Assembly (NCBI GenBank): GCA_973895155.1
Contig: OZ316896.1
Coordinates: 3,944,738 to 4,008,737, forward strand
DNA: 64,000 nucleotides
Reading direction: 5' to 3'
Origin: Marsupella aquatica
Taxonomy: Eukaryota > Plantae > Marchantiophyta
A program made the position numbers and the translations under genes. Under the pieces are notes generated by a model. The model worked only from the letters and a program-made list of their open reading frames with translations. It ran no database searches and was not told where the DNA came from. This document shows, in pieces, positions 1-41,434 of the stretch; the first letter of the stretch is position 1, and every line of letters starts with the position of its first letter.

Positions 1-74
1 CAACGGGAGAGGCTACAATAATAACCACATGGTGTGGTTTTGCCCCTATCTCGCTAGTAGCACGAAATAACCCC

Positions 75-2300
75 TCAGAATGAGCAATTTGGCGGACGCA
101 AATCTCCCATTGATGAGGGATCAAAATAAATCAAGCTCGCAAGGTTCTTGTCTTCACGTATGATACAGTCTGCAAACCCAGCATTTTGTATATCCTGCAG
201 GGATCGCAATTTCAGCCTCTCACCGACCGGCCGCACTAGTTGGTTTCCTTGACTATCAACTGATTTCTGTATTCCTTCCACCAACCTGTAGAATATAGGG
301 TCGATCTCCTTCAACAAATTATCATTACTAATATTTACATTTAAGCACTTCTTCAGATAACCACTCAACGCATCTCTCAACTGCTTCAGCACCATCTTGT
401 CGAGCTTAAAGCGATCAATCATTCCTTTGACCCGCAATTTCCGCGCTGAATCTGTCAGACTTTTCAGCTCCGTCCGGGTGGATGTTTCCCCATTGAGTTT
501 ACTCAATAATAAAATCTCAAACTCAACTTTCATCTTCTTCTTTATACAGAATTGCTCCAAACTCATGCTGGTCGTTGACAACACTCGAGCCTCAGAGGAC
601 TTCCTCGCCTTCCCAGATTTCACTTTGATGCTTTGGTTTTTGAGTATAGACAGTCTTCCGCTCAACATATATTCCGCTGCCTTTCGAAGAACCGAGTCTG
701 AGCACCCTTGACAAGAACGGAACGTCTTCTTTAGAAGATGATAAGCACATGGATTATCCGCAATTTTGACGGTGTCCCTCTGTAAAATTCTGTTGTAAAT
801 TACAAGCTCTCCTGTCCTTGATAGTTCATAGACCTCCATCCACTTCTTGAATGTTTCGTCCTCCATTGTAAAGAGAAACGGAGCCAATTCTCCAAATTTC
901 ATCATTTCGTTCTTCCCCATTTGAGCCCATGGGCAGACAAAACTCGTAGCTCTCATAAATACCTGAAAAACAATGGAAACATGACAATTCTAAGCTTGAC
1001 GCGACCATTCGCGTGACAAAAGTTTATACGATAATGTGATCGAAGAGGGTTATTTATATACCTTCCAATTTGGATGACGATAATGTGATCCAGGCCACCC
1101 AAATGAGTTCCAGATATTACGACACTGTCGTACAATGGTGAGAAACTGTCCTTCTTCCATTGATGTTTGATGACAGTGGTTCAAAGCTTTTGATAATCCC
1201 ATCAAATGAACATTATTGTCGTTGTTGAGCGTTGCCCAAAACATTATAGCTTCTACAGTACCGCAAGCGTCTCGTACAACTTGGCTGACTTTGTCGTCCT
1301 CTCTCAGCAATTTGTACGCCATTATTGTGTGCTGGCCTTCGAGTATCCAGAAATGACTGGTCATAATGTCCTCCTCCTTTGGCGATGAATCGTAGGGCAT
1401 CCCATTGTAGTCGGGATCTCTGTCGGCCTCCGACTGAACCCACTTCACAGGGACTAAAAAGCAGCATTGCTTCTCGAACTTTATAGCCGAATGAGAGAGG
1501 AGTGAATTCTTTAGCCTATCTGTGTAATCCTGATTCCACTCTCGGCACTTGATGTGGTCCGGTGCAAGATGACAACGTGATGTCTCAACAAAAAATGACT
1601 TGCTGTTAAATATATTCACAGCACTATATTCTTTGAGGAAAGAATCAAACAGAGCCCCGACATTCGCTGAGGTAATTACTTTCGGAAGATTCTCCGCCGA
1701 GTATATTTCAACCTTGCTCACTGGCGGGGCCTTTCCCAAGCAAAATCCCTGGTTGAAAGGAACTCTCTGGAACTCAAGTACGTCAATAATGTATTGACAA
1801 ATCAAATCTCCCGTTGATGCCTCTGGATCGGAAGGATATCCCACACTAGTAACCTTTTCCAAGGCGTGCCTTGCACCTAGAAGATCATCGATTATGGGTT
1901 GATTGAAGGTTACATATTGCGTTCGATCCAAACAAATGCTTATTTTGTCTTCCTGCTGGTCGTCGCTGACTAGCAGAACCAATCCCTCTGTACACTCTTT
2001 AACTTTCATGTTCTTCTCAAAGAAACACCCGAGAATTTTTGATCTCTCCAAAACTGTAGCTTTATCATTTCTTGCCACCACAAGACGGACAGCCCCATTG
2101 CGAACGACTATTCCAAAATCGGATATCTCAGTCGATTCAAAGAGATGGATACTCTTTGTCTCCGTTGTTCTCTCTCTGATTGACTTTCCTCGATATGCAA
2201 GTATGGATGTCTCTGCGGGAGTCATTTTTGTCTTGGCTTTCTTTCGAGAAGCAGCTTTAGACGAGTCTCTTTTCCGCTTTGAGGTTCCGATAGGATCCAT
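75..2300 (-). CDS. ParB/Sulfiredoxin-fold protein, two exons (2300-1062, 962-75); possibly continues past a frameshift beyond the window start
   Basis: ORF 1050-2300 shows the ParB/Srx pattern CREWNQDYTDRLKNSL...FWILEGQHTIMAYKLL...VEAIMF...LSKALN. A 99-nt GT..AG intron (1061-963; AAG|GTATAT...TTTTTCAG|GTA) joins it in phase 0 to ORF 75-956 (NWK|VFMRATS). The N-terminus is NLS-like (KRKR, RKKAK). Confidence 0.7.
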
Positions 2301-2375
2301 TCTTAAATAGACAAATATTGAAAGTTAAACATTTATTATAAAATACTAACACGCACATGGTCGCGTCGTGCCGAA

Positions 2376-2906
2376 TTACATTTTAGGAACATTTATCCTG
2401 ACCCAATCTTCTCGCTCATCTTCATCTAACCAAAACCAAAGGTTCCTAAATGTGTCAAGTTCAGATCCTTCAAATCCACCCAAAATGTCCAGCGGCGGGA
2501 GAGTTCTGATGGATTCTGTAAATCTTAATGCTACACTCCGTGAAGTCAAATGCCTTCGAAGCGATTCATATCCTGGTCTATCAGTGAAGTCGTAAGCTAC
2601 CAAGGTGACCGTCGCCCATGTACTACTATAAGTAACTATGTGGCACCACTTCTTACTGACTGTTCGAATGGCGATCAAGTCCATGACCCGATTTTTAATC
2701 GCAGTATTCGACAAATTCCCAAGACAGTGGAAAAACTCTTTGACTAATGGCCAAATATATTTCTCGACAATATCATCCGGAAGACCGGGTATCAGGTCTT
2801 CAGCTTGACTCCATATCATGTTTCGGTTCATAACCTTTGCACGTGCAATGCGCTCCATCATCATTTGACAATGAGATTTTTGATTCATGTCAAAGGACTG
2901 CAGCAT
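2376..2906 (-). CDS. F-box-like protein, paralog 1
   Basis: LIPGLPDDIVEKYIWPLV...IRTVSKKWCHIV is a plant F-box signature with an internal insertion. Intronless, 176 aa. Confidence 0.7.
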   Translation of the reverse strand: MLQSFDMNQKSHCQMMMERIARAKVMNRNMIWSQAEDLIPGLPDDIVEKYIWPLVKEFFHCLGNLSNTAIKNRVMDLIAIRTVSKKWCHIVTYSSTWATVTLVAYDFTDRPGYESLRRHLTSRSVALRFTESIRTLPPLDILGGFEGSELDTFRNLWFWLDEDEREDWVRINVPKM

Positions 2907-2940
2907 AATATGGAAAAGATTAAGAACAAGACCCTATCCA

Positions 2941-3507
2941 TTAAGAACTGGGACCACCGAGATTCTGAGAAAATCTACCAAACCTTTCGATTAGGACATC
3001 TCGTTCTTCCTCATCTAAATTCCTATATTTGTTTGTAAACAATGCGATTTCATCAGAAGTAGTAGTCCCAAGAACAGATATTTCTGGAAGCATAGAAATA
3101 TCCTGTCGAATAACTCGATAGACTGAGTCAAACTCCAACTCCTCAGTTTCGGGTATGTCGTAAAGAGCATCATTTGCGACATCGACAATCCGGTTTGCTT
3201 GTTTGAGGATAGTCCATAACCTTGTATTTGTAACTAAAAAGTTCCACTTCTTGCTACAAGCTCCAAGCCGAATAAGGTCTCGGACCCTATTGATAACCAA
3301 ATCGTTATCGAGGTGTCGATATCCACGCAATCTTTCAATTGAAATAAAGTGTTCGTAGAGTATTGGCCAAATGTTTGAAATGACCAAAACATCTGGTATT
3401 CCTCCAATGAGACTAGAGGAGGTTTCATCCAGCGTATCCCATATTGTTTTCTGTTTCTTTTCATGAGATGAAAGGAAATCTCGAGTCTCATTCAAAAGTT
3501 GGCTCAT
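2941..3507 (-). CDS. F-box-like protein, paralog 2
   Basis: LIGGIPDVLVISNIWPIL...LGACSKKWNFLV. The C-terminal LPEISVLG..EIALF..LDEEER motif is shared with paralog 1. Confidence 0.68.
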   Translation of the reverse strand: MSQLLNETRDFLSSHEKKQKTIWDTLDETSSSLIGGIPDVLVISNIWPILYEHFISIERLRGYRHLDNDLVINRVRDLIRLGACSKKWNFLVTNTRLWTILKQANRIVDVANDALYDIPETEELEFDSVYRVIRQDISMLPEISVLGTTTSDEIALFTNKYRNLDEEERDVLIERFGRFSQNLGGPSS

Positions 3508-3572
3508 CCTGCTTTTATCATATCACAAAACATTGTTAGAAGACATACGACGCGCTTCGTCACGTAAGTTAA

Positions 3573-4124
3573 CTAGAATTCCTTAAAAGCGTAGATGTCA
3601 CCCTCAAGGTATCCAACTTCGTGGCATCTGACTGTAAATTTCCATTTTTCAAGAGGGTGAAGAGCATTGTAAGTCTTCGTGAAGAGTTCCCTAAGATCTC
3701 TGGACATTGACCCCATGAATTTAATTCTTGGGTATTTCTGGAATAAACTTTGAACTGTCGATGAGAGAGACTCATTTCCGATCGGTTTAGTAGGATTTCC
3801 TGGGAAAGCCAAATCTAATAAACTCAACTTGATTACACCCAGAATATAGGTATTCCCAACAAGGTGGCGCCATCTGCGACACACCGAAGATAGTCCTACA
3901 AACTCATCCAATTCCTTTATTGAGAAATTTCCTGCATTAGCCGAGGAATTAAAAGTCTCCTGGATCCGAGGCCATATCAATTCCGCGACAATGAAATCTG
4001 GAAGTCCAGGTAGTAGTGTTTCAACAAATACAGAATATCCCGCAAGTAGACCATCTTGGCTTCTGTCCAAAACGTCAAATATTGGGCATAGATATCTGAA
4101 GCTCTCTAGACCAGGTTCGCCCAT
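3573..4124 (-). CDS. F-box-like protein, paralog 3
   Basis: LLPGLPDFIVAELIWPRI...LSSVCRRWRHLV. The C-terminal YPRIKFMG..LRELF motif aligns with paralogs 1 and 2. Confidence 0.68.
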   Translation of the reverse strand: MGEPGLESFRYLCPIFDVLDRSQDGLLAGYSVFVETLLPGLPDFIVAELIWPRIQETFNSSANAGNFSIKELDEFVGLSSVCRRWRHLVGNTYILGVIKLSLLDLAFPGNPTKPIGNESLSSTVQSLFQKYPRIKFMGSMSRDLRELFTKTYNALHPLEKWKFTVRCHEVGYLEGDIYAFKEF

Positions 4125-4263
4125 GACTCTTTTCAGCCAAATGATATATCCCAGAGATTATATTTCACGCGACTGGTCGCGTCTACAAATCAGAATGCAT
4201 AAACAATTCTTTGAGAGACTGATTTTTTCGGGTCACAACGTGAAATCATAAATATTGCTTCGT

Positions 4264-4850
4264 CCTCTAACAGAACCAGTCAATGAGAGAGCAACCTCAG
4301 ACGCGACTGGTCGCGTCAATTGAACCTAAATAACTATATCCACTGAACCTTCTGCGGAGATTTGGATATGGTACGCGCTCAGTAAATCTATCCAGTTTCC
4401 TTCTCACACGCGATTGGTCGCATCAACTGGTCCTAAAAGGAACCCTACCTCCTCTAACAGAACCAGTCAATGAGAGCTCTACCTCAGACGCGACTGGTCG
4501 CGTCAACTGAACCTAAACAACTATATCCACTGAACTTTCCTTGTGGAGATTTGGATATGGTATGCGCTCAGTAAATCTATCCAGTTTCCTTCTCACACGC
4601 GACTGGTCACGTCAACTGGTCCTAAAAGGAACCTTACCTCCTCTAACAGAACCAGTCAATGAGAGAGCAACCTCAGACGCGACTGGTCGCGTCAACTGAA
4701 CCTAAACAACTATATCCACTGAACCTTCTATGGAGATTTGGATATGGTACGCGCTCAGTAAATCTATCTAGTTTCCTTCTCACACGCGACTGGTCGCGTC
4801 AACTGGTTCTAAAAGGAACCTCACAGTATTTTCACACGACTGGTCGCGTC
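4264..4850. repeat. Tandem repeat, ~188-bp unit x3, two 18-bp palindromes per unit
   Basis: CCTCTAACAGAACCAGTCAATGAGAG starts at 4264, 4451 and 4640. ACGCGACTGGTCGCGT variants at ~4300, 4408, 4487, 4596, 4676, 4783, 4833. Confidence 0.95.
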
Positions 4851-7384
4851 AACAGCTGAAACAACTTTTGGACAATAGGATAATACAGTGATACAACTGT
4901 GATTACTGACCCGTACGGACAAGGAAATCCGAGGAAGCATAATCATTCATTTGTATTCATTCATGAACTTTACAATAATTCAGATGTTTGAGCTCTGTCA
5001 TTGTGAAACTATTATATATTAGAAGTTTAGAGAATGATCCAGCTAAGATGATTCAATTTAGCAGTCTACTGGTTGTATTCGTCAATTAAAGGATTCAATT
5101 TAATGAGATTCACATAACATGAGAGTTTATATGATTAAATTCACAGCGTGCAAGTTTGTAATGACTTACTTAAGACGATTCAGGTTGTATTTTAATTAGT
5201 GAGTTTGTATGATTCACACATATTTGAGTTTACAAACAAACCGCATTATGAAAATTGTGCTTAACAATCAAGAGAAATTTTAGCAAACCACAATCAACAC
5301 CAGCAGAAAATGTAGAAATTACACCTGAATTCTGAAAAATTGATGTAATCGCCTGAGAGATTGACGTCCAAGCACTTGAACACCTTGCTGCGGCATTCCA
5401 GAAAGTAAATATAAGTTTGAAGATATTAATATGCTAAGCAACAACAACACAGCTTCTATACTTCTATACATAGAGCTTCGCTGCCACCAATTGAATAACA
5501 TGTGCTTAATGCTAAGGAGCTCATTATGTTGAGTTAAAAAGATTCTTTCAGAAGTACAATCAAAGCTGTGGATAGGCAAACTGAGCATGAATAAAAGCGC
5601 ACTAAACCTGAAGATTCAAAGAGGTGAAACAAACCAGAATGCTGAATGGAAGGAGCTAAAACAAGCTGCCAAAAAGTAGTTCGAGCTGCTGAAACACGTT
5701 GATCGAGCTGATATGAGCTTAAAATTGGCTGACACGAGCTGATACAAGCACTCCCAAAAAGCTAGCTGCAACGAACTAGCAAACTAGAAGTGAATACGAG
5801 CTGTAAATGCGAGCTGCAATGCGCCAACGAGCTCCTGGTCGAAACGATGGACAACTACTAAGAGTTGCAATGCGCCGACAAGCACCTGACCACAACGAAC
5901 GAGCTGCAACGACAAAAATAAAATCCAGGGCAGGAGCGAGAGCGAGAGCGACGAGAGCAGGCGCGCAAAAGTCTAGGGAGCGAGAAACAACAACAATGAA
6001 CAATGAACTCGAGACCGTGGGTGCCGACACTAAGGAAGGACTAATTAGGGTATTGTTTTAGCATAACCCTAATAACAGCCTAGCGACAGGAAGGTTCCAG
6101 ATGATCTCCGTACACTCCACCATCGACTGAACAAACTATGCAATCGTGAAAAAAAGATTATCGGATTCTTTTTGATTTTCCGTACTAAAGGAGATTTCTA
6201 TTTGATGGCCAATTTGAAATTTAAATCGGTAATTATGCAACTACAAAAGATTATTAGTGGGGACCCCCGGATCCGGATCCGTATCTTCACTATATCTGCC
6301 AATTCAAATCCAAAATGTGAACGAACAACAACTTTCTCACGATCGTTCCATCACGTAGTGGAGGCAAACTTCAAAATCATTCCATTTTGGTAGTGGAGAC
6401 CGTCGGATCCGGATCCGTACTCCACTCTCTATCTTGCCAATTCAAACCCTTACTCTAAACAACGTAAAACAATTCTCACGGTCGGGGAGAACCGATATTC
6501 AAAATCAATCCTGTACAATGATTCTCACAACTGGAGACTCAACCAATTTTCAAAATCAAAATCGAGTCCAGATGAACACATCCTCCATGGAGTCAATAGA
6601 CTGATCTCATTGCTCACGGATCATTCTTCATTTTCAGTTTCTCCTGACCAGGATACTAGCTGGGCTCTCAGTGGAGGCTGATCCAAGGCACATTTGAGGT
6701 GGAGCAGATTGGATCATTCGACTATTCCAGTCGGAGGCGGAGCTCATTCAAGCAACGCTGGCGCAGTTCTTGTTGTATCACCTTCAATCTTGGGGAGAGC
6801 ACATCCGATCAAGTGGGAGAGTTGCGACGAAGTGAGACGACAAACATTTAGAACCTCCATAGTCTACCTCATTCATCGAAGCATTCTAGCGGACCAACAA
6901 AGAGCGGCTATTCTGAAATCACAGTCTAGTCGAGGATTTTGATCTTGATATGATCAACAAGTTGTCATTCTCTGGTGGTGGGATTCGATCACGATACTCA
7001 AGGAAATTGGAGTTCGAAGGAGGAGGCTTAGTTGGCTGGGACGAGGAGGGTACGCTTGAAGGAAGAGGCTTGGCTGGGAGGAGGGTTTCCGCCAACATCG
7101 GAGGGTTGCCGCCAACATTGCTTAGACCACACGCAACTGAATAACTTGTAAGTATCAATCAGCATTAATTCCACAATAAATGAGGAGAGTAGTTGCCTTA
7201 AATCACGCATTCAATGCATGAATTGAGTCAATGAAGTTATGGTCCAATTTCTCACTCCGAGTTTGATCAATCCGTGTTTCAAGTCCAATACAGAAGCAAT
7301 GTATCAGAAGTACTAGTAGAGGATCCGAATGAATTCTCTAGTCTAAAATTGTATGGCGTACGCGTATAGTTGTCCGTACGTTTT

Positions 7385-8335
7385 GCTATTGTTTATTGTA
7401 GTCGACGGCCTAGCAAAACGAAACGTAATCGAGGTCCATTTTTCAGATCTTCCTGATCTCAACTTGTTAGTAGGATGACCTGTTTTTTGGTTACACATGC
7501 AGTTCGTCACGCGCACAGTCGCGTGAACCAATTTATCTCGTGTCTTTTGATATTGTTTATTGTAGTCGACAGCCTAGCGAATTGGCCAGAAATCTATTTT
7601 AAAACCAACGTCTTCGTTTCATCATGCGCACGGTCGCGTTAATGTTTTAGAGGTCAGCAAAAGTTCTGCACTCTTAGATGTAATCGCCCTTTATTTCAGA
7701 GATCTTCCTGATCTCAACTTGTTAGTAGGATGACCTGTTTTTTGGTTACACATGTAGTTCATCACGCGCACAGTCGCATGAACCAATTTATCTCGTGTCT
7801 TTTGATAATGTTTATTGTAGTCGAAAGCCTAGAGAATTGGCCAGAAATCTATTTTGAAACCGAGTTCTGATTCACACGACCGGTCGCGTTAATGTTTTAG
7901 AGGTCAGCGAAAGCTCTGCACTCTTAGACGTAATCGCCCTTTATTTCTCAGATCTTTCTGATCTCAACTTGTTAGTAGGATGACCTGTTTTTTGGGTTAC
8001 ACGTGTAGTTCATCACGCGCACAGTCGCGTGAACCAATTTATCTTGATATTGTTTATTGTAGTCGACTGCCCAGCGAATTGGCCAGAAATATATTTTAAA
8101 ACCGAGGTCTTTGTTTCATCACGCGCCCGGTCGCGTTAATGTTTTAGAGGTCAGCGAAAGCTCTGCACTCTTAGACGTAATCGCCCTTTATTTCTCAGAT
8201 CTGCCTGATCTCAACTTGTTAGTAGGATGACCTATTTTTGGTTACACATGTAGTTCATCATGCGCATAGTCGCGTGAACCAATTTATCTCAGGTCTTTTT
8301 GATATTGTTTATTGTAGTCGACAGCCTAGCGAATT
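7385..8335. repeat. Tandem repeat, ~250-bp unit x~4, with degenerate palindromes
   Basis: AGATCT(T/G)(C/T)CTGATCTCAACTTGTTAGTAGGATGACC recurs at ~7445, 7699, 7950, 8197. CACGCGCACAGTCGCGTG-type motifs occur about twice per unit. Confidence 0.95.
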
Positions 8336-8508
8336 GTCAGTCAGAGGAATCTTGATTTTTCCTTGATTGCAAAAATGGTTACATCGATCCCGAAGGACTT
8401 CGGATGTGGAATCCATATCCACTAGCACTATCCAGGAATTTAAGCTACACAGTATCTATAACAAGTTCTAACTTGAACTACTCTTGAATCTGTAGTTCTA
8501 ATCTTCGA

Positions 8509-9081
8509 CTACTCAAAATATTGTTGACTTCGATCGAGTAAGTCATTCCAAGATGAAGGGATCCACTCATCGGTGTCTGGTGTGGATTCCCTTGAATCCA
8601 TAAATTCTTCCTTTGCCCAAGTCCTAACGTCCATAGATTTTCTCGGCTTGCTCTTTCTGTAATACAAATCAGAATCTTTGTTCATCTCTAATTGCCTTTT
8701 CTTCGGTGCGTCCACTTTCTTGGCCTCCTTCTTGACTGTCTCAGCGTCTGCTGCTGCTTCCCCCGAAATGGATTCGACGCATGCTCTGGCCTTCAACTTC
8801 TCCCCCCTCAAAACGGATTCCACGAGGGCTTTGCCCTTTAACTTCTCCCCTGATGCCATCTTTGTAGTCATCTCTGTCGGATTGGTGTCCATCTGATCTT
8901 CCATCGACAAATGTGGCGAACAATGTCCTCTCTCACAAAACATTTGACCCGATTTAGTCACCGTAAACATTATATTACATCGCTGACACATTCTGTAAGG
9001 AGTACCCCGAATTTGATACGTCAAACCTTCTGAATCGTCCGTCGAAACATCCTCATTCTTTGAGCTCAGCGGAGTAGTCAT
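8509..9081 (-). CDS. Small Zn-ribbon-like protein of unknown function (element passenger)
   Basis: 190-aa ATG ORF with CQRC-x13-CERGHC and a basic C-terminal patch (PKKRQ, YRKSKPRK). Confidence 0.5.
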   Translation of the reverse strand: MTTPLSSKNEDVSTDDSEGLTYQIRGTPYRMCQRCNIMFTVTKSGQMFCERGHCSPHLSMEDQMDTNPTEMTTKMASGEKLKGKALVESVLRGEKLKARACVESISGEAAADAETVKKEAKKVDAPKKRQLEMNKDSDLYYRKSKPRKSMDVRTWAKEEFMDSRESTPDTDEWIPSSWNDLLDRSQQYFE

Positions 9082-9264
9082 CGCCCTTCAAACAAGAGAT
9101 GTTGACCGAGACTAAGAATTGGAAATGAGAGAGCTGATGTACGAATAGATTATCCAGTAGCCAGAAAGTGGAATGCATGGGGGAATGAGCAATAGAGATC
9201 ATCTCAATGCTTTATACTGTTTAGTCTCCACTAGTCATTGTACATAGTGGTTTCTAGAAGAGGG

Positions 9265-10100
9265 TGCGCGTTTGACTGGCGCGTATTAGAATTGGCGGGA
9301 AGTTCAGTTGTCCGGTGTCCACTCATTGGTAAACTGGTACTGTCCACCCATTTTTCCTGAGTGGAGTTGAAATGATTTTTCGTAATCGATTGTAGTCGTT
9401 CTCATTCACTTGAAATGACTGACGGACCATGCATTATCTTTACCGGTATGTGTGATGCCTTTAGATCCGTAATTGTATCTTCCTGTCTCGCGCGTAATCG
9501 TATCTTACTTATGAAGTACCAATTACGAGCTAGAGTTTGGGCCTAGCCTTCTAGCTTCTACGTCGTAGACCCTGTACCCTCTGACTAAGGTCACGCGACA
9601 TGCCTTTAGATCCGTAATTGTATCTTCCTGTCTCACGCGCAATCGTATCTTACTTATGAAGTACCAAGTACGAGCTAGAGTTTGGGCCTAGCCTTCTAGC
9701 TTCTACGTCGTAGACCCTGTTATCCCTACACCCTCTGACTAAGGTCACGCGACTAGTCGCGTGCAGGGCAGTGCATTGACTACATTCTGCCTACTTATTG
9801 ACAGTTGTGACAGGACAATGCAGTTCACGGACGTTTTACTGGCGCTTATTAGCACTACTGTCCTCAGTAGTTACTGACTGTCCACTCATTTGTTTTGAGT
9901 GGATGTGAAATGATTGATCGTAATCGATTGTGGTCATTCTCATTCATTTGACATGACTGACGGACCATGCATAGTCTGTTGCCGGTATGTGTGGTACCTC
10001 TAGGGTCACGCGACCAGTCGCGTGCAGCGCAGTGCATTGACTACATTCTGCTTATTGACCGACGTGACAGGACAGTGCAGTGAAATTGACGGACGTGACA
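9265..10100. repeat. Nested direct duplications in the divergent intergenic region upstream of the transposase
   Basis: TGCCTTTAGATCCGTAATTG at 9456 and 9601 (145-bp unit); ~9270-9452 resembles ~9830-9992; 9745-9830 resembles 10005-10095. Palindromes at 9746 and 10007. Confidence 0.9.
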
Positions 10101-10129
10101 GGACTATACGCTTACAGTGATATTCTCTG

Positions 10130-13100
10130 ATGTGCAGGATCATAATTATTATGGTGACATCGATAGTCTGGATCAGGGAAGGCGGACAAGTAATTATAGG
10201 CATACGTGAGAAACAGGTTGGAAAAGGTCGCGTGATAAGTCTTGATCCTTCCAGGGTTTGTCACAATGTTCCTCTTGGGGCGGACAGAGTTCTTCTTCTA
10301 TTGGAGGAAGTTTTTGATGAGACCATTCTATGCGAAGATGGCAAAATTTTGAAGGACATGATTGGGGGTTACCTTGTATGGGAAAGGAATCAGCTTTTTT
10401 GAGCTCCCATGGAATCAGAGGATGTGTTTGGCACTGTTGGTGATGATCAAGATCCAGTCAATCAAAATTCTGATGGGAACAACCATAATGAGAGTCGGTC
10501 TGGTGTGGAAGTAGTTTTACCAAAGGCCTTGTGGATGGCATGCCTGTAAAGGTGGTGGATGAGAACAAGTTGATATTTGCAGTGGCAACTATACATGTTC
10601 TAGATCCTATAGTCAAGCTTGGGGATGTCACCCTTGGGAATACACATGTGGGAATTCTGATCAACGATTTTGTCGAGGGAGCTACCATAGATCATCTGAA
10701 GCATAGAGATTGCTTAAAAGCTTGGTCGATGGACCAACTCATTGCCAAGGATGGCAACTTGTTGTCTTTCCACAACATCAGGCAAGCTGTGGGAGGGAAC
10801 ACATCTCCAACAAGTGGCAAGCAGTCCTACGTCCATAAAAGTAGGAAAAGAAAGAGTCCATCTTCCCAGACATCTAGAAGAGACACATCTTTGGCACGTC
10901 AAGATGTGTTGTTGATAAACACTAAGGACTGTTGTAGTGAACATTGTTGCCAATATTTGGACCGCAACTTGGCTATGGAAATTAGGCAAAAGTGGTGGTC
11001 AAAATCTTTTGCGGAGCGCAAGGAGGAGGAAATCAAGGCTATTAAAAATACAATACACTTGGGTACTGGAGAAAGGATTCTAGCAGTGGAGGGCAAAGTA
11101 TTGTGCTTGGAGGCATGGAGAATCATTCATTCAAGAGGAAAGACTCAATTTTATGCCTTCAAGAAGACTGTGATGGCTGGAATGAACATAGGTACCCATG
11201 GTAATGCTGGAAAAAGGCGTATGTCCGAGAAAGTATCTCAAGCGTTCATGTCAATGAAAGAGATTATTGAGGAGGCAGCTGATCATCATCCAGCCAAGTT
11301 GAGAACCATGGCAGATAATACAAGGATGGTTTTGAGGGAATTGCCAACAAATCTTACTTGGGAGAATATTAGAAACAGGGTTAATGTTGTCAACCAGGAG
11401 GCTGGTTTTCCTCCAATTTCCCAACCCACCTTGAGTCATCTACATCACATGTATTTCAGGGAGTTCTCACGTCACAAAAAGGGCAACAACTTTTCAAAGT
11501 GTACAACTTGTAGTGAGTTGCTTCAACGGAAAGCAAACCTTACAGGAGCTAAGGAAGAGTTAGAGGGCCTAAGGCGTGACGAGGAGGAACATCACCAAGA
11601 CCACACATAACAAAGAATGTGCTATCATACCTGGAGATATGAGTCCATCCATCGTCCAAAGGAAGTGTTATGCCTTATTCATGATAAGATGGATCATTCA
11701 AAGACAGCTCTCCCAAGAATGCCCTTCAATCCTAAGCATGTGGATGGTGCCCAAAAGTTCCCAATTACTGTCACTGGTATCCTTACTCATGGTCATGGTC
11801 CCAAGGCCATAGCCCAATATCATGTTGGAGTGTGGCCAGGTGATGTCAACATCACTATTGGGTCAATTGATTCAATACTAAGGATGTTGGAAAACCCAAA
11901 TCCAATGATCAAATCACTTGTGGAGGGGCCAGACTCAACAAGTCTTTTTAAAGACCTCCTTTTTGGGAGAGCAGATATCTTGGAGGCAAGTGTCCTTAGA
12001 GCATTTGAGGATGACATTGCCTACATCTCAAGCCTAGGTACTTTACTCACAATCCTTTAATTTATTATTATTTAATAATATAAGCTCACACACACTAACA
12101 CTCTACTTTGTGTAGTTGTTGCTCCTCTTAGCCAAGGTTTCATTAATAGGGTTTAAACCCTAAACCCTAAATTGGGGTTTAGGGTCTGACTAGGGTTTTG
12201 TTTAAAAGCATTCTGAGATTGTTACATTGTGATGTAGCACCTGAGGCACCAAAGTTCAGGCCCCTTCCACGAGTATTGAAGCTACAACTGGATAATTGTG
12301 CCTCAGACAACAAGAACAGATATATGATGGCTTATTTGTCATTGTTGACGGCAAGGGAGGTGTTTGAAGAGGTTCATCTTGGTTTTATGGTGGTTGGGCA
12401 TACTCATGAGGACATTGACGGTATGTTCGGGCATTTTTCAGAGTCTATGATGCATAACCCCACATACTCATTGCCTGAGTTAATGTCCTTGTTCATGAGA
12501 GCAAGGACACCCAATGCAGTCCCATATTTTCTACAGGAGGTCCCAGATTTCAAAAACTACTTAGCTCCATTCATGTTGAAGGGCCCTGAGGCATTGGTGG
12601 GGCATTTAAAACCCAGGCTGTTTAGGTTCTATGTTCGTCATGATAGTATGCCATGCTTCCAATACAAAATGAAGTCAACTGATCAGGGATGGTTACCCAA
12701 GGAAGGTATTGAAATGTGGTCATGGAAAGATGACAAAAGTCCTCACATCCCAATTGGGGTGCCCAAACGGCTACCAATGATGGAGTTGAAAATGCTTCCT
12801 GAAGTGCTGACAGGGTTGAAGAAGCATGTGTCATTCTTTGAGTTTATTCTAAAGCGAACAAAAGAGGAAGAACCAAAGCGACGTTGGACAACTCTCATCA
12901 ATTATTGGAATGACATTGTAGATACTCTACAGGGTGAGCAGGTGCAATATGAACCTGAAGGTGCACACAACTTGGAATACGGGTTTTGGCCTTTATCAAT
13001 ATGGAGAGAGCACGTTCCACCAGAATATCGAAATGTGGCATGTGAGTTGGAGGCAACAGTGGATTATGTGGGACCAACAAAAGATAAACCTCCTGAGAGT

Positions 13101-13526
13101 TTTAACCCTAGGGTTGATGTTGTGAAGGGCTGTTATGTGTTGGTATGGCCGGACGACTCAGACCTGGATGTTTATCCCGTCCATATGGGGTTAGTTGTTA
13201 CAGATGTGGTAGAAGGACCAGTGAATGAACAAAACCTTCTTACTCATGTATGTGGCGTTGAGTGGTTTAGACCATTTATGGCAAAGAAGCAACGTGGTCA
13301 ATCAGACTGGCAGCCCAGAGAGCGGTGGGCAGATTCTTGGGATAAGAAATGGGAACGTGATCCATCTCCAATATACAAGGAAGCTGAGACAATAGATGTT
13401 TCCTCTGCCTTGTGGTGTTTCAAAGCACGCAAAGGACCAATGACAGGGCTGGTAGGAATTCCAAAGAATGTTGCTGTCAAGGCAAGAGACTATCTCTTGA
13501 CATGCATAGCAAGTGACAAATCCTAG
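10130..13526 (+). pseudogene. Disrupted DDD/E transposase, Sola-like/DUF7869-type, with two N-terminal Tnp1/En/Spm-like domains
   Basis: Motifs CCSEHCC, FSKCTTC, LIHDKMDHSK, LQLDNCASDNKN and VGHTHEDIDGMFG. N-terminal GRVISLDP..HNVPLG..GGYLVW and ATIHVLDP..GDVTLG..KAW repeats. Lesions: TGA at 10400-10402, a frame change near 10500, in-frame TAA at 11608-11610. A phase-1 intron 12038-12237 joins the last two ORFs. Confidence 0.75.
12146..12199. repeat. Plant telomere-like repeats in both orientations inside the transposase intron
   Basis: TAGGGTTTAAACCCTAAACCCTAAATTGGGGTTTAGGGTCTGACTAGGGTTTT. Confidence 0.75.
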
Positions 13527-13619
13527 ACAGTAATGAAGCATGTAGTTTAGCATACAGTTTAAAAGGCAACTCAGAATAGTAGTAGCTAGAGAACTCAAGT
13601 TTAGACAAGTTTTATCGTC

Positions 13620-14195
13620 TAAGTTAGTTAGTTGGTTAGTTTATTTAAGATATAATATTAGTTAGTGGGCCCTTAGTTTGGTGATATTAAGGCATGATAT
13701 TATTGACATTCAAATGAATGTCCAGTAGACATTGTAATATACAACAATCCTATTAATAAATAATAATTATAGTTACACCCTCAAGTGAACTCAACTTTCA
13801 ATGATTTCTGATTTTATATGGTTCCATGCCTGATTGAGTCAAAGCAATAGAAACTAACTAATTAAAGGGTGATACTATAATTGTAGGTCACGCACCCTGG
13901 TGCGTGTCAATCTTTTTTGTATTCAACCCTATAGTAATTAAATAGACAAGTTAGTTAGTTGGTTAGTTTATTTAAGATATAATATTAGTTAGTGGGCCCT
14001 TAGTTTGGTGATATTAAGGCATGATATTATTGACATTCAAATGAATGTCCAGTAGATATTGTAATATACAACAATCCTATTAATTGTTGTAAATAAACTA
14101 ATTAATTAAAGGGTGGTACTTACTATGATTGTAGGTCACGCACCCTGGTGCGTGTCAATCTTTTTTGTATTCAACCCTATAATAATTAAATAGAC
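13620..14195. repeat. AT-rich direct duplications downstream of the transposase
   Basis: ~13620-13755 matches ~13947-14082; ~13880-13945 matches ~14128-14195. Each of the latter pair carries CACGCACCCTGGTGCGTG. Confidence 0.9.
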
Positions 14196-16541
14196 AATTG
14201 AAACAATGAATGATAGTTTAATTAAGGATTTGTGCATGGATCAAGAGGTACTTGATGTCATTTAGTGATGCATTGTTATAAAGATCTTGCAACAAAACAT
14301 TTGAAGTTTTTGACTATCCCACCAAATGTTAAAGAGGTTGATCATTCATTAACTAATAATATTTAGATAAAATTGGAATTAATCTAATACTTCAGTATTC
14401 CTTAAATTGGGGTTAAGTTGTAATTATACAACACACTGCCAAAGAAAAAAGCTTCAAACTCAGAGAAAAGACTTTAAAGGCAGGTGACCCAAGAAAGGGG
14501 AGAAAAAAAGGAAACTCCAGGATGACCATGGCCCAAAGGACTGAAAGTTGCACAGTACAACAAAGGAACTAAAGCCCTACTCACCAGTAAACTTAAAAGA
14601 CTGGTAAAGCTGAGGAGTAAACTACACAGGAGGGTCCCAAGGAAGCATTTATTTAGAGTCCCTATTCCCAACGGGAACCCAACAGCCTCAGCCATTCCTA
14701 ATTAAAGAGTGAATGCCTGAGCCAGGCTCTATAGTGCAGAAAAACTGGGAAATAAGGCTGCGTCTCTACAAAAAATATCCTAGGCTGCATGGTTGCACAA
14801 CCATCTCTTTGGGCTTGGGACAGTCCCCAGGGATCGTTATGTAAGGGACACCTTACATGATTGAGCCCCCAAAACTTCCAAAGCTAAACAAATCCCCAAG
14901 TGAAGGTAGCCATCTGCATACCCCTCCTTCTCCTTGACCAGGGCTGCCTTGGCTGATAATTAGTATTACTTTATGTATACAGTAATGCCCTGGTGAAGAG
15001 ACATGATGAGCCATAACTCCCCCAAAATGAGAGCTTTAGCTTGAGTTTTGAGGGGCTATTGTTGCCCAGAATGCCCTTGCAATAGGGCATTACTGAACAC
15101 ACTTTAAGTTCTAAGAGATTCACGCTTAAAGGTCTAAGATATTCAATCTTAAGTTTTTGGTCCAAGTCTATACTATGCACTTTTCTCAATAGAAGCACCA
15201 AAATTTACTAACGGAAAGTCAATAAGAACATTAAGACAGTTACCCAAGAGGTAGAAGCCCAAGCGTGTGATGAAAGAAGAAGCTAAAATGCCAAGAGTTT
15301 GCTAGGTTTTCTTCTGTTTTGTATGGTAAAATTGTGAGTTACGTATGCTTAAATTGATTGATGGGGTCATTGCATAAGTCCTAGTATTCAAAGCAAGGTG
15401 TGTATTGTATAAAATATATTATGCTACATATGAAAAACAAAGCCAAACCTAACTAAAGTCTTTAAGTACACAGGCCACAATGCCCTGGAAAAATTGCTTT
15501 AGCTCAGGGGCTACTACTGCTGATATTTCAATATATATATACCTGTGCGTTGCACAAAATAAGTAGTTGTGCAAAAGATGTCGTTGCATAAAAGATGTCC
15601 ATGTGAGAAATGTGTCATAGCACAATACGATGGTATTGAAAAAGATGTTGCATAAACAATTTATTTGCATAAGGATGTCTTTGAGTGAAAGATTTCTTTG
15701 CATAAAAGATGTTATTAAAAGATGGCATGGAAGAAGTCATTGAAGAAAAGGTCGAGGTGCCATAGAGGCAAGGTGACCAGATCCATGGACGCATGATGGC
15801 AACTGTGAGGTCCAAATAGGGCCATGCCACTATTCACTTTTTTCCTCCTCTCCCCCCTCCTTCTCTCCTCCCCCTCCCTAGTACATAAGGGAGGCAGTGG
15901 GCGAGGGCAAGGCCCAAGGAAAGGCAAGTGGGCATAGGGGGCAGGTAAGAGGTGGACAGACTGTGGGTCCCCCTTGCTATGTTCTCTTTCCCAGAGGCAT
16001 TTGGTCCATCTTTCTCCCACCCCTCGTGCTCCTCGAGAAAAAAAAAACCCATCTGATGTGGTTCAAGCTACTATAAATGTGGATATTTTTGGTCAAAACA
16101 AGTGGTAAAAACAGTGTATGGTGCCAATGGGTTGTAAGGAAATTAAACTAATCCCACTAGGAAGGCAAAAGGCTATTGGGGCAAAAGAGAAACCTCCTTG
16201 CAAACCTGTATGTTGGGTGTCTGATGCAAACATGACATTAGCTATGGACAGAAAACCTTAAAACCGGCAATAACCATAAATAACGCTATCAATGTTAGGA
16301 AGACCTTAATAAGGGGTCTACCTCAAAATTTGATGGACTAAGTTAAGGTTACCATTAGACTACCAAATTCATAATCCATATTAAGTCTTTGTCATCAAGA
16401 TTGGTCATACAATAACCATAAATAATGCTATGTTAAGAAGATCTTAATAAGGGGTCTACCTCAAAATTTGATGGACTAAGATATGGTTACCAACAGAAAA
16501 AACATAAAAATTTTAGGATCACCAAATTCATAATCCATATT

Positions 16542-16897
16542 TGTTGAGCATAGAAAACAATCGTAACGGTAAACACATGACACACCCAATGCGTAACTAA
16601 TCGACACAAGAGATATGTGATTCACCTCCTCGAGGCAACATCCACATGAACAAATAAGAGAGCTTTACCAAACTCTAAGCCCGTCGGTCACACCAAGTGT
16701 CCACAATGTAAGACAGTTCTCTTCTTCTCTCAAGTGATTCGGTAACAATGAGCCTTAGTTCCACATATCCTATCAAGCACCGTTTAGAATATAGTGTGTA
16801 ACTTAGTCAACTTCACCACGTCTTTGATCACGATTAACTTAACTACAATTACATGTCATAAGCCTACTGTAGATGTAATAGTAAATACCTCACAACA
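16542..16897. mobile_element. Probable solo LTR (~356 bp)
   Basis: TGTTG...CAACA ends. It interrupts the second copy of a local ~140-bp duplication (16268-16409 vs 16410-16540 + 16898-16925). No clean TSD. Confidence 0.5.
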
Positions 16898-17289
16898 TTA
16901 TGCTTTTGTCATCAAGATTGGTCATATGCCATGATCACAAGTCAATGTAGAGTCTAGTGATGAAAAAAGAAAAGACTTTTACAAAACCATGTGAAATAGA
17001 TATGGTCATTTGTTCCTGGTCAAAAGCCGTCATCCCAAAACCTTGAGACCCCCAATTAGTCCCCCTAGTGAGTCGATCCAAATCTTGACAGTGCATGCTT
17101 CGCACGACCTCAGATGTACATCTAAAGAGAAAGGTCTCGAGGGGCACTAAGTTTTTCAAACAGTCTGCGTCCTCGTTCTCGCCAGTCGTGCTCCATGGTG
17201 CCTTTCCAGACCGTGGCCTGATTCTATCGTTGGAATTAGTACTTTCCACCCTCAAAAGGGGAGCTTTTTGACGAGGTTATTCCATGATC

Positions 17290-17452
17290 CATGAAGCTGT
17301 CGTTTCTTTTTTGCCTCGAAGGTTTCGAAGAATTCGATTACCTGAAGCTGCTATTGAGTTTTTGCCTCGAAGGTTTCAAAAAATTCGATTCCCTGAAGCT
17401 GTGATTGAGTTTTGCCTCGAAGATTTCAAAGATTTCGATTCCCTGAAGCTGT
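17290..17452. repeat. ~46-bp tandem repeat x3-4
   Basis: Recurring (C)TGAAGCTG...TTTTGCCTCGAAG(G/A)TTTC...TTCGATT. Confidence 0.85.
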
Positions 17453-17974
17453 TCTTTGTTCACTTCGGCAAACATTGTCGTTTCTCTTCGAAGCTCGAGA
17501 AAGACAATCAGACCTAGTCCGCATACCCTGACACCGCTCGAGATCAGCAGGGTAGTCCTTCGAGCTGTGGTTTGTTTGCTGAGGGGAAGCCCTGCAGACC
17601 AGCAGGTTTTCTTGGATCATGTATGTACGTCCAATGTCTCGTGCCCACTTCTCAAATAATCGTGGAAGGCAAATTGGTGGAAGTTTTGAAAGATTTGTAA
17701 GTGAATCCATCCTGCTTCTCCCGAAGGCTTGATTCGGAATTGGTATCCAATTACTGTCATGACATTACACGAGAATGTCAGGAGATCGTTTGGTTTTGAT
17801 ACTAGTTCCTCCTGAGAGATTGCCGGAGCTTTTGTCTCGAGGAGGTCTGGTGCCTAGCTGGTGGAGCTAAATAGACACTCTGTTTTGGAGAGAACGACAT
17901 TCTCATGAACAATCAAAGGAAGTGTTTCTAATTTCTATTAGTGGAGTAGCCAATGTGTCACGCGGCGTGTTCTG

Positions 17975-18529
17975 ATGGCTTTGTTGAGTTCTTCTTACCC
18001 TTTCAGTCGAAGCAGAGCTCTTCATGAAAGTACACAATTCTATTCCGTCAAGAATTCTATGCTATCCTTTGAGTCTTCTCCTGAGAGATTTTCGCTGCGC
18101 TCCGTTGCATCCCTCAGAGGATTAGGTCAGGCAGGTGTGATACGAGGCATTATCAGCGGAGCGCCTGCTCCAGGACTGAGTACTATGGCGCTTCAAGGAG
18201 GGGAAAGGGCTCCTCGACGTTTGGTTGATTTTGTAAGAGCTATTCCTAAAATATCGAGAGTGTATTTCAAAAGCCCTTTCAGGAGAGCTCTCTATGGAGG
18301 AATTTCTCTCCTGGGCGGATTTTTTGTTGCACATACGTTAACGCTTTCCTTGGGGGCATTGGGGTTAAATGACGTTGTTGCAGCTGCTGTCTCTCTGGTC
18401 GTTGCGGAGTACATCACTAAGTTTTATCATACTCGATCACAAATGACATTTATCGTCGCCCTTGTTAACAATTTCAAGATCGGATTCACGTATGGTTTGT
18501 TCATTGATGCCTTCAAGATAGCCAGTTGA
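17975..18529 (+). CDS. ycf20: Ycf20-like (DUF565) chloroplast-targeted protein, NPQ6-like
   Basis: Ser-rich transit-peptide-like N-terminus, then RRLVD..IPKISRVYFKSPFRRALYGGISLLGGF...NNFKIGFTYGLFIDAFKIAS, the typical plant DUF565 C-terminus. Confidence 0.88.
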   Translation: MALLSSSYPFSRSRALHESTQFYSVKNSMLSFESSPERFSLRSVASLRGLGQAGVIRGIISGAPAPGLSTMALQGGERAPRRLVDFVRAIPKISRVYFKSPFRRALYGGISLLGGFFVAHTLTLSLGALGLNDVVAAAVSLVVAEYITKFYHTRSQMTFIVALVNNFKIGFTYGLFIDAFKIAS

Positions 18530-18650
18530 GCCAGGCATCCTGCTGGGATCACTAGATCTTCTCATTCTTGGTAACAGTTTCTCATTTTTTAACAACAATC
18601 GTCGACAGAATCAGAAGATTTATTCATCGTATGGTTTCGTTTATTGATAC

Positions 18651-18713
18651 CTTTTTCAATGCTGACCTCGTCTACCTTGACTCGGAAGGTAGACGAGGTC
18701 AGCATTGAAAAAG
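18651..18713. repeat. Perfect 28-bp inverted repeat with 7-nt loop
   Basis: CTTTTTCAATGCTGACCTCGTCTACCTT-gactcgg-AAGGTAGACGAGGTCAGCATTGAAAAAG. Confidence 0.97.
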
Positions 18714-18855
18714 TGAGATTGGACTCGACCAAGGTTGTATTGGGTGTCACAGATTGTTAGTCAATCTGAGCTGTTGACCAGCCAGCTCTGTTTGCTGAAT
18801 CTGTGGACAAAGCCGACAGGAACAGTATGTTCAAACCCATTCAGAGTCTCTTAAA

Positions 18856-19117
18856 AGAGCCATTGACGAAAATCAGCTGAATATTTGAAGGGCTTCTTCA
18901 CGTTTGACAGGACGAAGCCATGAGAAAACATTCTGTCCAAGTGGTTTGCTGAAATCTCCCAGCTCAATGCCTCATCTCACCTCTAGAGAGCCATTGACGA
19001 AAAGCAGCTGAATATTTGAAGGGCTTCTTCACGTTTGACAGGACGAAGCCAAGAGAAAACATTCTGTCCAAGTGGTTTGCTGAAATCTCCCAGCTCAATG
19101 CCTCATCTCACCTCTAG
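18856..19117. repeat. 131-bp near-perfect tandem duplication
   Basis: AGAGCCATTGACGAAAA starts at 18856 and 18987. Confidence 0.95.
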
Positions 19118-19692
19118 AGTCACATTGCAGCGGTGCAATTCACTGTGATTCGTCTAGCGGTTGAGCAGCGTGAAATTGTGCTCTGTAACTCGAGTCGTGT
19201 CATAGAATGTCTGGATTAGATAAAAAATTTGTTGTTGTCAGTTTGCAATGTTGAACGGAAAGGAGAATGTAGAAAATCTGTTGATTATAGCCGTAATTAC
19301 TTTGAGATAAATTGTTGATCGAACAAGTCCTAAAATACTAGACCGCTTACACTGCTAAATTATTTTACTATTTTTCTATATTACAAGATTGTATGTGTAT
19401 TACTCAATGTGTATTACTCTGGACAGCTTAGAGATCCTTCCCAAACCTGGGGGTCCATAGTATTTTATTCTGTACATTCTGTACAAGACCTGCAAAGGGC
19501 AATTGAACCGAAGAAAATAACATGGATTCCTAGAAATCTCCGTTGGAATGTCTCTATGGTGGACCTGGAAAATCCAATATAAGTCCAAGCTACTAATACA
19601 GCCACAAAGTAAGAAACGAACGGGTCTGGAAATAATCTGATATGGTGCTAGACGTCTGAAACCCCTTAACGACTACAAGTCAGCTGCAAAGC

Positions 19693-33467: not shown

Positions 33468-34675
33468 GTACGGATTGTCTTTTTTATTTCCCGTATTCTC
33501 CTTGAAGAGAATCAACACAAAAACCTTAGCATGTTCTCGAATCCCTCCTGCAAGAGAGGGGGAGATGAATCTTAAGACATGAACTAAACATAACAAGAGC
33601 ACATTTAACATAGCCACTAGCCCAGATGCAAAACCTGGTGGTCTGGGTTTACTAAACTAAGACCAAAATGTTCTCAAAAAAGTAAAACATTCCACTGATT
33701 TGTCCTCTGCCGAACCTGATGGTTAGTGGCTGTTTGAAGACAATGACAAATGTTGAGTGCACACACTTACACCTGCCGCATCTTACATGAGTAAAGGACC
33801 TAACCAGAGACAACTTAAGGTAATGACACGTGGTGACTGCACAGACTAACACCTGCGCATAATAATATAGTAACACAATACAGTATCCGGAGAACTGTAA
33901 CGAAAGGTAACATTCGATCACAAAAGAAAACAGAGTATCCTGTCACAATACTTCACATTCCTCAATTAAGGAACAGGAAAGGCAGTCGATCACCTGTCAC
34001 AATGCTTCACATTTCTCAATCAAGGAACAGGAAATGCGCACCGTAGATCGGCGAAGCGAAAGGGAGGAAGAATGAAAGGAGCAGCATAACAATTGAAAAT
34101 TTCACCAACTTAATTGAGAATGTGGAATGTGCAATTGTATCGACACTCATGCACGACTCTTAGCTCACCGCCAACCATTGGCCTTTGCCCTTTCTCAATC
34201 ATGGAACAGGAACGGGGCACCTTAGATCGGCGAAGCGAAAAGGAAACGAATGAAAGGGCAGCATCATAATTGAAATCGTCACCACCTTCATTAAGAATGT
34301 GGATTGGATCGATACTCATGCACGACTCTTTAGCTTACCGGCAACCATTCGCCATGGATCGGACAAACTGCCAAGGTGGTTGTGACACTGGGAGTCTTGA
34401 CAAGCGAGGCAGTCTTGACAACCGAGGCAGGGGGCGTCACTCTTATAAGCTCTTACTTAGCTTTCATTCTTTTTGTATGATCAAGCCCTACTCTCTTCAC
34501 TTCTTGCATTCCGTTCCCAGTCAAGTATATGTTTGGTTGTAGCTCCTGAGCATCATATTTCGGGGATCCAGTAACTCACAGTGTCCAGTACGTTGGCGAC
34601 CAGAATCTCCTATTGAGCTTGCAGACGGTACCATCTGCTGTCACGCTCATCATCTGGTCATCTGTAGAATTTGCT

Positions 34676-40781: not shown

Positions 40782-41434
40782 GCACTTGAATAGTAAATCC
40801 AGGGAGACAGGAGATAGGAGACGGAGCTGCAAAGGAAATTTTTGTCGGTCTAATTATTAATGATTAGCACTCGTTGTACAACCCAAGCTAACGTCGTCGC
40901 GAATGTCACAAGTAAGCTCGATCAGCTGCTCATGTGTGCAAGTTACGTGTGTACTAGGCTGTGAGATTGTTCCCTCCAATTGCATAACAAAGCGGACCGA
41001 ACTGTATACCACACGAGTACTTTATATCATGTGATTGGAGTCAGTTTGCAGTGTAGCGGAAGCTACTTATTTAAATAACGTAACAATACAAGTGTATGAA
41101 TGCTATGGATTTCACACAGATTCAAACGATAGTTATATTCATTGATTATAACACGTGAATGCTGCAGTGAATCCATACTGAAGAACGTAGCATATGTACT
41201 ACTGTATTGTCTAACAAAAAAGCCACTTGTGACTTAACTCCAAGCAATCGTATCCAGGTGGTCTAGATCATAAAACGGGTAGAAGGAAGAATCAGAAATG
41301 TCCTGGAAGAAACAGGAGGAAGTAATGCATAGTTTCTTTAGAAAGAGTCCTGAGTCCAGCACACTTGCTTTCGCTCGATCCCACTCTGGAAGCAATGTGT
41401 GCCGGTGCCTGAACACATGCTGGTGATGCCTGCG

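Follow-up and report, generated by a model that had tools for sequence, protein, structure and literature searches.

Does the beginning of the analysed stretch of DNA, a window of 64,000 nucleotides from contig OZ316896.1 (positions 3,944,738 to 4,008,737), harbour one mobile unit that recognises its own sequence? An earlier note on this DNA had claimed for positions 1 to 14,200 a new cargo-bearing transposon system with a Sola-like transposase, a ParB-fold protein, an F-box triplet, a zinc ribbon and an 18-bp palindrome of its own. According to the present analysis, positions 1..14414 very probably belong to one mobile unit, a Sola1-like DNA transposon present in many copies, of which they form the right-hand portion and whose left end lies beyond the window start, because cargo and transposase are covered to a similar depth and because the terminus is sharp and passes into varied flanks. 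The divergent layout of the earlier note, with the transposase on the + strand and five open reading frames (ORFs) on the - strand, is confirmed by the arrangement of the ORFs and a match to DUF7869, whereas its right boundary has to be moved from 14,200 to 14,414, where depth drops and contigs end loosely.

From a set of seven sequencing runs, none recorded as RNA, contigs were compared over 1-20,000 (runs X1, X2, X5 and X6) and over 13,500-15,000 (X1-X4). In X1 and X2, summed contig depth, which is not a copy count, ranges between 4,800 and 72,000 in 21 of 21 bins up to 14,007, as against 29-236 in four host-gene bins at 17.3-20 kb, such that the depth of the element is around 290 times (X1) or 105 times (X2) that of the host genes. 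Median depth of cargo and transposase amounts to 11,750 and 8,507, respectively, in X1 and to 9,432 and 11,423 in X2, and from this evenness we infer that both parts are linked in other copies as well. Beyond 14,417 depth falls to 0-48 in four of four runs (X1-X4), and contigs of X2, X3 and X4 continue at 14,414/14,415 into varied flanks. The right terminus located by these loose ends (14385..14414), a probable terminal inverted repeat, reads ...TAAATTGGGGTT and ends with GGGGTT (AACCCC on the other strand), which fits the AACC..GGTT ends of Sola1-1_Ec32 of the brown alga Ectocarpus, only the right end being in view. It is directly followed by AAGT; the flanks of the other copies are visible only as a mixed consensus. 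For Sola1, a target duplication of 4 bp with an AWWT-like preference is described (PMC3845634), and Sola1 is recorded for Physcomitrella (PMC9033089). One loose end of X4 joins 11 of the 12 first bases of the expected left terminus to position 14,225, and depth is higher over the last 50-100 bp (14,225-14,417), which together suggests short non-autonomous derivatives. In X5, which represents a third organism, near-identical pieces of ParB exon 2, of F-box-like gene C and of the transposase occur at low depth; they may belong to a low-copy relative or to carry-over.

The transposase (about 10130..13526, +) matches PF25273 (DUF7869) with E 1.3e-36 in a Pfam scan of 12 ORFs; we take DUF7869 to be the Sola1 transposase, and no mention of it was found in the literature searched. 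Three acidic motifs of the DDD type are conserved (11,677-11,694; 12,288-12,317; 12,396-12,419), intron sequence is situated at around 12,037-12,230, and full-length relatives comprise 940-1,070 amino acids (aa) at 31-35% identity. The window copy is interrupted by stops at 10,400 and 11,608 and by a frameshift near 10,536, and other copies differ from it at the stop at 10,400 and at the frameshift. With both its transposase and its ParB gene broken, the window copy is dead. At 12,140-12,200, the transposase intron contains telomere-like TTTAGGG/CCCTAAA repeats, between which the terminal 11-mer TAAATTGGGGT recurs without a mismatch.

The element contains a palindrome of its own: CACGCGACNNGTCGCGTG, with up to three mismatches, is matched 17 times against an expectation of 0.03, all within 998-10,024, such that the 18-bp palindrome of the earlier note is borne out. 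A looser match yields 22 sites, two of which (at 13,889 and 14,137) are variants; around 8-9 of the places are independent, the remainder being copies within tandem repeats. Within the element, the frame ACG-N10-CGT is found 16 times, as opposed to twice in the other 49.6 kb; other spacings are found 0-3 times. Single palindromes are situated around 50 bp upstream of the start codon of the ParB gene (2350..2367) and around 42 bp upstream of those of F-box-like genes B (3549..3566) and C (4166..4183). Seven palindromes each are found in a tandem array of three 189-bp units (4263..4850) and in one of 3.6 units of around 250 bp (7438..8336); the former is the deepest bin of the depth profile and is therefore probably longer in other copies. 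Two consensus palindromes lie in the divergent promoter region (9746..10024), a last half-site is found at 10,229, and the two variants, with outer CACG-N10-CGTG and a different core, are located in a duplicated 3' block (13889..14154). Contrary to the claim that the palindrome is interleaved with all genes, no site is found between F-box-like genes A and B.

Concerning the ParB-type gene, the earlier note had assumed a compact gene, whereas two exons are found. Exon 1 (1062..2300, -; 413 aa) is followed by a GT-AG phase-0 intron (963..1061, -), which is placed by the ends of homologous ORFs and contains one palindrome (998-1015), and by exon 2 (75..962, -), which is frameshifted at around 76 and has the homologs P0036 and P0037 (at 56 and 50%). 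The exons (2300-1062 and 962-75) join in frame to at least 709 aa. Other copies exhibit a 2-base difference at 76 and P0036 possesses around 150 extra residues; therefore, the gene continues past position 1 of the window in other copies. The search of representative sequences yielded 29 matches, and the repeat proteins P0018 and P0032 were removed before alignment. Homologs of this family are 25-59% identical and have a common intron position, the homologous ORFs ending at the same WK-V point, through which the intronless P0033 continues.

Structure comparison and Foldseek of the predicted exon-1 model (AlphaFold2; model confidence, pLDDT, 82.9) support the ParB/Srx fold claimed for this protein. 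At aa ~231-381, where the motif GQHT is found, the model resembles PadC (VIA Z 8.2, root-mean-square deviation 2.8, 99 aligned) and KorB (Z 8.1), and the top eight structural matches are all of the ParB/Srx fold, with which Foldseek concurs (BFVD, E 4.7e-4). A further part at aa ~36-180 exhibits PH-like matches (Z 4.0-4.7). In the Atlas, the clusters nearest to the ParB domain are those of DUF3723 (0.95, 182 shared features). For the ParB-type gene, no match of any meaning was obtained from Pfam, PADLOC or NCBIfam; the sole result from PHROG was a ParB-like family (E 0.29), and sequence searches of the PDB were blank or at chance level. GxxRxxA is the CTP-binding motif of bacterial ParB; it is absent from the family studied here, which has G-Q-H-T/S-I-x-A at that place.

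As regards the helix-turn-helix domain by which bacterial ParB binds parS, a helical region follows the ParB domain here, but the model of exon 2 is unreliable (pLDDT 36.5), its fold search giving helical bundles only. The C-terminal part shows a weak similarity to a permuted N4C/N6A methyltransferase, being colinear with an alignment of 39 beta-class sequences over 204 columns; only one homolog covers this region. The gene may end in a degenerate methyltransferase-like domain. The catalytic motif [DNSH]PP[YFW] (PMC4738411) expected of an active ParB-methyltransferase is absent in three of three sequences, in which the aligned position reads DPSS, DCSV and DSTL. Matches of the C-terminal part in the Atlas were at chance level (0.81), as were those of P0036 among phages, and a single-sequence comparison with YhdJ of E. 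coli was blank.

A pronounced step in CpG content, not remarked on in the earlier note, divides the element. With arrays and sites removed, the observed/expected ratio (o/e) of CpG is 0.83 in the cargo part and 0.29 in the transposase part (Fisher p 1.5e-11); in bins of 500 bp it varies between 0.60 and 1.32 up to 10,500 and between 0.16 and 0.40 from there to the end of the element. The best change-point, 10,240 (41.7 vs 10.5 CpG per kb), adjoins the last palindrome half-site (both within 10226..10240) and is situated around 100 bp inside the transposase ORF, where depth is continuous. At third codon positions, C precedes G in 58 of 183 cases in the cargo vs 12 of 117 in the transposase (p 1e-5; control p 0.15), and the non-coding spacers of the cargo are CpG-rich, too (0.86-0.95). 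Elsewhere, CpG o/e is similar to the transposase part in a long interspersed nuclear element (LINE; 0.36) and in the flank (0.27), and similar to the cargo in host genes (0.84-0.89); the cargo part therefore seems to have had a history like that of unmethylated DNA, although it is located in a high-copy repeat. That binding of the ParB protein protects DNA from methylation, in line with the self-recognition and possible anti-silencing of the earlier note, is a tentative explanation of this pattern, which would support it indirectly.

The remaining cargo consists of three F-box-like paralogs and a Cys/His ORF, all on the - strand. Gene A (2376..2906; 176 aa; Pfam F-box E 0.0027; homolog P0077 at 43%), gene B (2941..3507; 188 aa; F-box-like E 0.0016) and gene C (3573..4124; 183 aa; F-box E 0.017) match F-box or F-box-like with E 0.0016-0.05 and 14-19 bits. 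The F-box triplet of the earlier note corresponds to these three paralogs, whose F-box matches all lie below the Pfam cut-offs of 20.5 and 24.3. Their alignment reveals conserved LxPGLP..V...IWP and ..W and an insertion of around 20 aa; two homologs were found among 2,997 candidates, and no substrate domain is recognisable. The proposal that they act like the F-box suppressor P0 on AGO1 finds no support in the analysis. The orphan ORF (8509..9081, -; 190 aa) contains CxxC...CxxxHC in its translation and is a possible zinc ribbon; Pfam, PHROG and NCBIfam yielded no family match of significance for it, a dedicated homolog search not having been made. In 4,860-7,400 no further convincing gene was found. 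Two segments there (6,240-6,500 and 6,600-7,150) comprise a duplicated block containing GGATCCGGATCC and a stretch of low complexity, in which other copies differ by an indel of 3 bp (7,042); they possibly represent a decayed sixth gene.

For comparison, the metagenome scan with the transposase was evaluated for the best 80 of 494 matches, of which only 30 have the full 10 kb upstream and many represent one locus recovered from several samples. These loci are AT-rich, mostly decayed and presumably moss-like. No ParB, F-box or Cys/His match was found among them, in a scan that is weak for ParB, the gene being expected at or beyond the 10-kb flank; within these flank limits, the scan shows a cargo that appears lineage-specific. 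Family-specific palindromes of their own occur among the relatives, TGGTGGCCACCA in 16 loci and GCCATATGGC in L004. An inverted repeat of around 36 bp together with TGGTGGCCACCA palindromes is common to L043/45/46, L044 (7,771-12,434) and L022/L023; in L043 (671-11,951; also L045 and L046), 11.3 kb between inverted repeats include seven sites and an ORF for a NIF-like phosphatase (3,892-4,509). In L004 (525-1,707), an array of TTGGCCATATGGCCAA palindromes is located directly upstream of an intact DUF7869 ORF of 1,070 aa.

We consider it fairly probable that the ParB-type protein binds the palindromes of its own element. The fuller reading, of a cargo-bearing Sola1-like element whose ParB protein by such binding keeps around 10 kb active and mostly unmethylated at CG, seems to us evenly balanced. 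In this reading, the DDD transposase would move the unit through its AACC..GGTT ends, while the ParB-type protein, which probably acts as a dimer, would read the ACG-N10-CGT sites that precede three cargo genes and those in the arrays, in the intron of its own gene and in the divergent promoter. The occupied CG-rich sites would exclude or reverse host methylation locally in the style of VANC, such that, in propagating copies, the 10-kb region of cargo and promoter would stay active and carry little CG methylation. The methyltransferase-like tail, if real, appears to lack catalytic activity and would serve as a module for binding, and the F-box-like trio might recruit an SCF (Skp1-cullin-F-box) ligase to host proteins, which is the weakest step. 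A more specific version, in which a phage-derived ParB with a dead methyltransferase tail coats an operator array and keeps 10 kb free of 5-methylcytosine (5mC) while three co-regulated F-box proteins degrade silencing factors, the whole being unrelated to VANC, is doubtful.

Several observations weigh against protection by a self-binding ParB protein and have to be set beside other explanations. The CpG step might be historical, i.e., an old transposase poor in CpG might recently have captured a CpG-rich cargo that had been unmethylated at its origin (in host genes, in another element or in a horizontal donor) and has not yet decayed. This is rather unlikely in our view, but the cargo equals the host genes in CpG o/e, its matches are absent from the best 80 of 494 related loci, and CpG is being lost from the cargo of the window copy: among 12 cargo-side differences with C or G in other copies and T or A here, hand-picked from 70 rows among more than 1,100, six are in CG and two in CHG context, so that this copy is decaying in its cargo part, too. 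The ParB family, on the other hand, is old and diverse, as its range of identities and common intron position indicate; the step lies inside the transposase ORF, in DNA of continuous depth; the spacers are as rich in CpG as reported above; and palindrome variants occur on both sides of the step. The two 3' palindromes, however, sit in CpG-poor DNA, homology of the transposase ORF across the step is only marginal (E 0.03), and transposases rich in CpG are found in 6 of 15 related loci checked, the CpG level therefore depending on the host. The palindromes themselves might be binding sites of the transposase, or subterminal enhancers, of plant Sola1-like elements, with ParB sensing nucleotides or autoregulating the cargo. 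Palindromes of their own are repeated in 17 of the 80 related loci, which lack ParB and F-box matches, and there they flank the transposase; in L043/45/46 and L044 they are found in ParB-less elements with both inverted ends in view, such that ParB is not a requirement for arrays of palindromes. This explanation would agree with the variants near the right end, whereas most palindromes are 4-14 kb away from that end, three of them just upstream of cargo start codons, and ParB and inverted repeats are paired again in red algae with another transposase superfamily (see below); moreover, ParB genes of the relatives may have been missed, being decayed or beyond the 10-kb flank. We regard the explanation by transposase binding as unlikely.

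An active enzyme would offer another route to the same CpG pattern: the full-length protein might be a ParB-N4C/N6A methyltransferase as in Sola1-1_Ec32 that marks its own sites and thereby blocks 5mC and CpG decay. The precedent exists in a Sola1 element (PMC12477816), the order of motifs is colinear with beta-class methyltransferases, and a ParB-bearing phage 'DNA methylase' stands at rank 5 of the fold search. Yet motif IV deviates in all three sequences as stated above, and hmmsearch of the tail is at chance (score -0.6, 166 of 1000 shuffles equally high), which renders an active enzyme highly unlikely; the resemblance itself, on which the postulated binding module depends, is weak in hhalign (E 0.029, probability 1.7%, 2 of 100 shuffles equally high). 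Finally, a ParB/F-box repeat and an unrelated copy of Sola1 might have come to lie side by side by chance. Neither the left end nor a target duplication is in view, none of the contigs listed for the runs on 1-20,000 joins cargo and transposase, the depth values are summed over contigs, and runs X1-X4 stem from two studies that possibly include the source sample. Since depth matches in two runs without a drop between the halves, the palindrome frame is common to both sides, and X5 contains near-identical low-depth pieces of both, this coincidence is very improbable indeed, and the single mobile unit of the earlier note is supported in spite of the missing bridging contig.

Should the self-binding ParB reading be true, the element would constitute a second, independently evolved sequence-specific anti-silencing system of plants besides VANC, which is based on a prokaryotic fold and might become a tool for demethylating DNA locally; with the CpG step, a sequence footprint of ParB accessory genes protecting eukaryotic transposon DNA would be available for the first time. 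For the ParB accessory genes of algae, binding and epigenetic alteration of their own element are only hypothesised, and the present element makes the idea testable in a plant, with its defined site of 18 bp, the operator-like placement of the sites and a sharp methylation boundary predicted at around 10,240. If it is false, what remains is a large family of Sola1-like elements that is undescribed and has an unusual cargo.

Concerning the surroundings, a patch of around 50 bp (14,561-14,609) with many loose ends on both sides is another small repeat outside the terminus, and a separate high-depth repeat (16,009-17,342) is situated between the element and the DUF565 gene. The flanking genes comprise this intronless DUF565 gene, a phosphoesterase and a LINE reverse transcriptase, the latter a CpG-depleted ORF of 830 aa with zf-RVT (48,467-50,959, -). 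Together with the telomere-like repeats of plant type and the LIPGLP-type motif of the F-box-like genes, they suggest that the host is a land plant, probably a seed-free one. A block repeated two to three times with 71-84% identity (34,550-45,000, 52,550-60,000 and 62,676-63,705) contains stand-alone RNase H, SET-domain and MYND-finger ORFs, intronless and CpG-rich, with the later copies decayed; its fungal style is an impression only. Rfam gave no match across 1-15,000. A Helitron was ruled out by the DDD transposase, the GGTT end and the lack of a Rep/helicase ORF. Scans of viral and prokaryotic genomes found no plant-type locus; L001, considered as a sister element, was rejected as a phage DUF6551 gene, and at 8,370-10,478 it contains a phage ORF similar to S-adenosylmethionine synthetase that, from translation only, is seemingly interrupted by an intein-like insertion.

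Among described systems, Sola1-1_Ec32 of Ectocarpus has a length of 21.5 kb, AACCG-CGGTT termini, a 4-bp duplication and, on the opposite strand, a 1,104-aa ParB-methyltransferase gene for which self-binding is proposed (PMC12477816). The present element is likewise large and Sola1-like, has a right end that fits AACC..GGTT termini, and carries an accessory gene with a ParB-like domain on the strand opposite to the transposase, followed by an N4C/N6A methyltransferase that is only putative here. Despite this similarity, it differs from the brown-algal element in its probable land-plant host, its degenerate methyltransferase motif, its N-terminal PH-like domain, the F-box-like trio and the Cys/His ORF; the available part of the description of Sola1-1_Ec32, on which rather than on its sequence the comparison is based, mentions neither palindromes nor a CpG step (PMC12477816). 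In the giant Plavaka element PAG3 of Bostrychia, ParB genes are located beside tandem inverted-repeat arrays, and self-binding is hypothesised (bioRxiv 10.1101/2025.02.11.637652). This arrangement is shared with the present element, whereas PAG3 resides in a red alga and possesses an EnSpm/Plavaka transposase, a fusion of ParB with a 2OG oxygenase and a separate methylase-SET gene, no F-box being named in the part of the source available.

Anti-silencing activity is proven for VANC of VANDAL21 in Arabidopsis (PMC5735166). Equally to VANDAL21, the present element combines an accessory protein with an element-specific motif in non-coding DNA, in tandem repeats, in an intron of the accessory gene and upstream of the transposase. 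However, VANDAL21 possesses a Mutator transposase, VANC contains DUF1985/DUF287, and its motif is non-palindromic and of the same orientation throughout; neither DUF1985/DUF287 nor a Mutator transposase was found by the Pfam scan of 12 ORFs. VANC is called dicot-specific in a source whose available part leaves ParB, Sola and F-box unmentioned (PMC13547354). The element is thus not a member of VANDAL/VANC; most plausibly, it would work in the manner of VANC through a ParB-fold reader.

Similarities extend to prokaryotes and fungi. DndB has a ParB fold. It binds TACG-N10-CGTA in its own promoter and contains the motif DGQHR (PMC4507180), the ACG-N10-CGT spacing being identical to that of the present element and DGQHR comparable to GQH[TS] of its ParB family; this operator parallel is suggestive for binding by the ParB-type protein and not a proof. 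The phage ParB-like protein of DUF6551 (L001) shares the GQH motif, with a profile match probability of 82%. Both are bacterial or phage proteins, and the similarity is distant and local. DUF3723, to which the Atlas clusters nearest to the ParB domain belong, is a conserved cargo of the giant Starship transposons (bioRxiv 10.1101/2021.12.13.472469), which differ as fungal elements with a tyrosine recombinase; the resemblance is one of shared Atlas features rather than of aligned sequence.

In the literature searched, the coverage of which was incomplete, no land-plant Sola element with ParB or F-box cargo was found. The novelty claimed for the system is therefore upheld in part: the core design, i.e., a Sola1 element with ParB on the opposite strand and ParB beside inverted-repeat arrays, is already published for Ectocarpus Sola1 and red-algal Plavaka, where self-binding is only hypothesised, whereas the inferred land-plant host, the F-box-like trio, the operator-like placement of the sites and the CpG footprint are new here.

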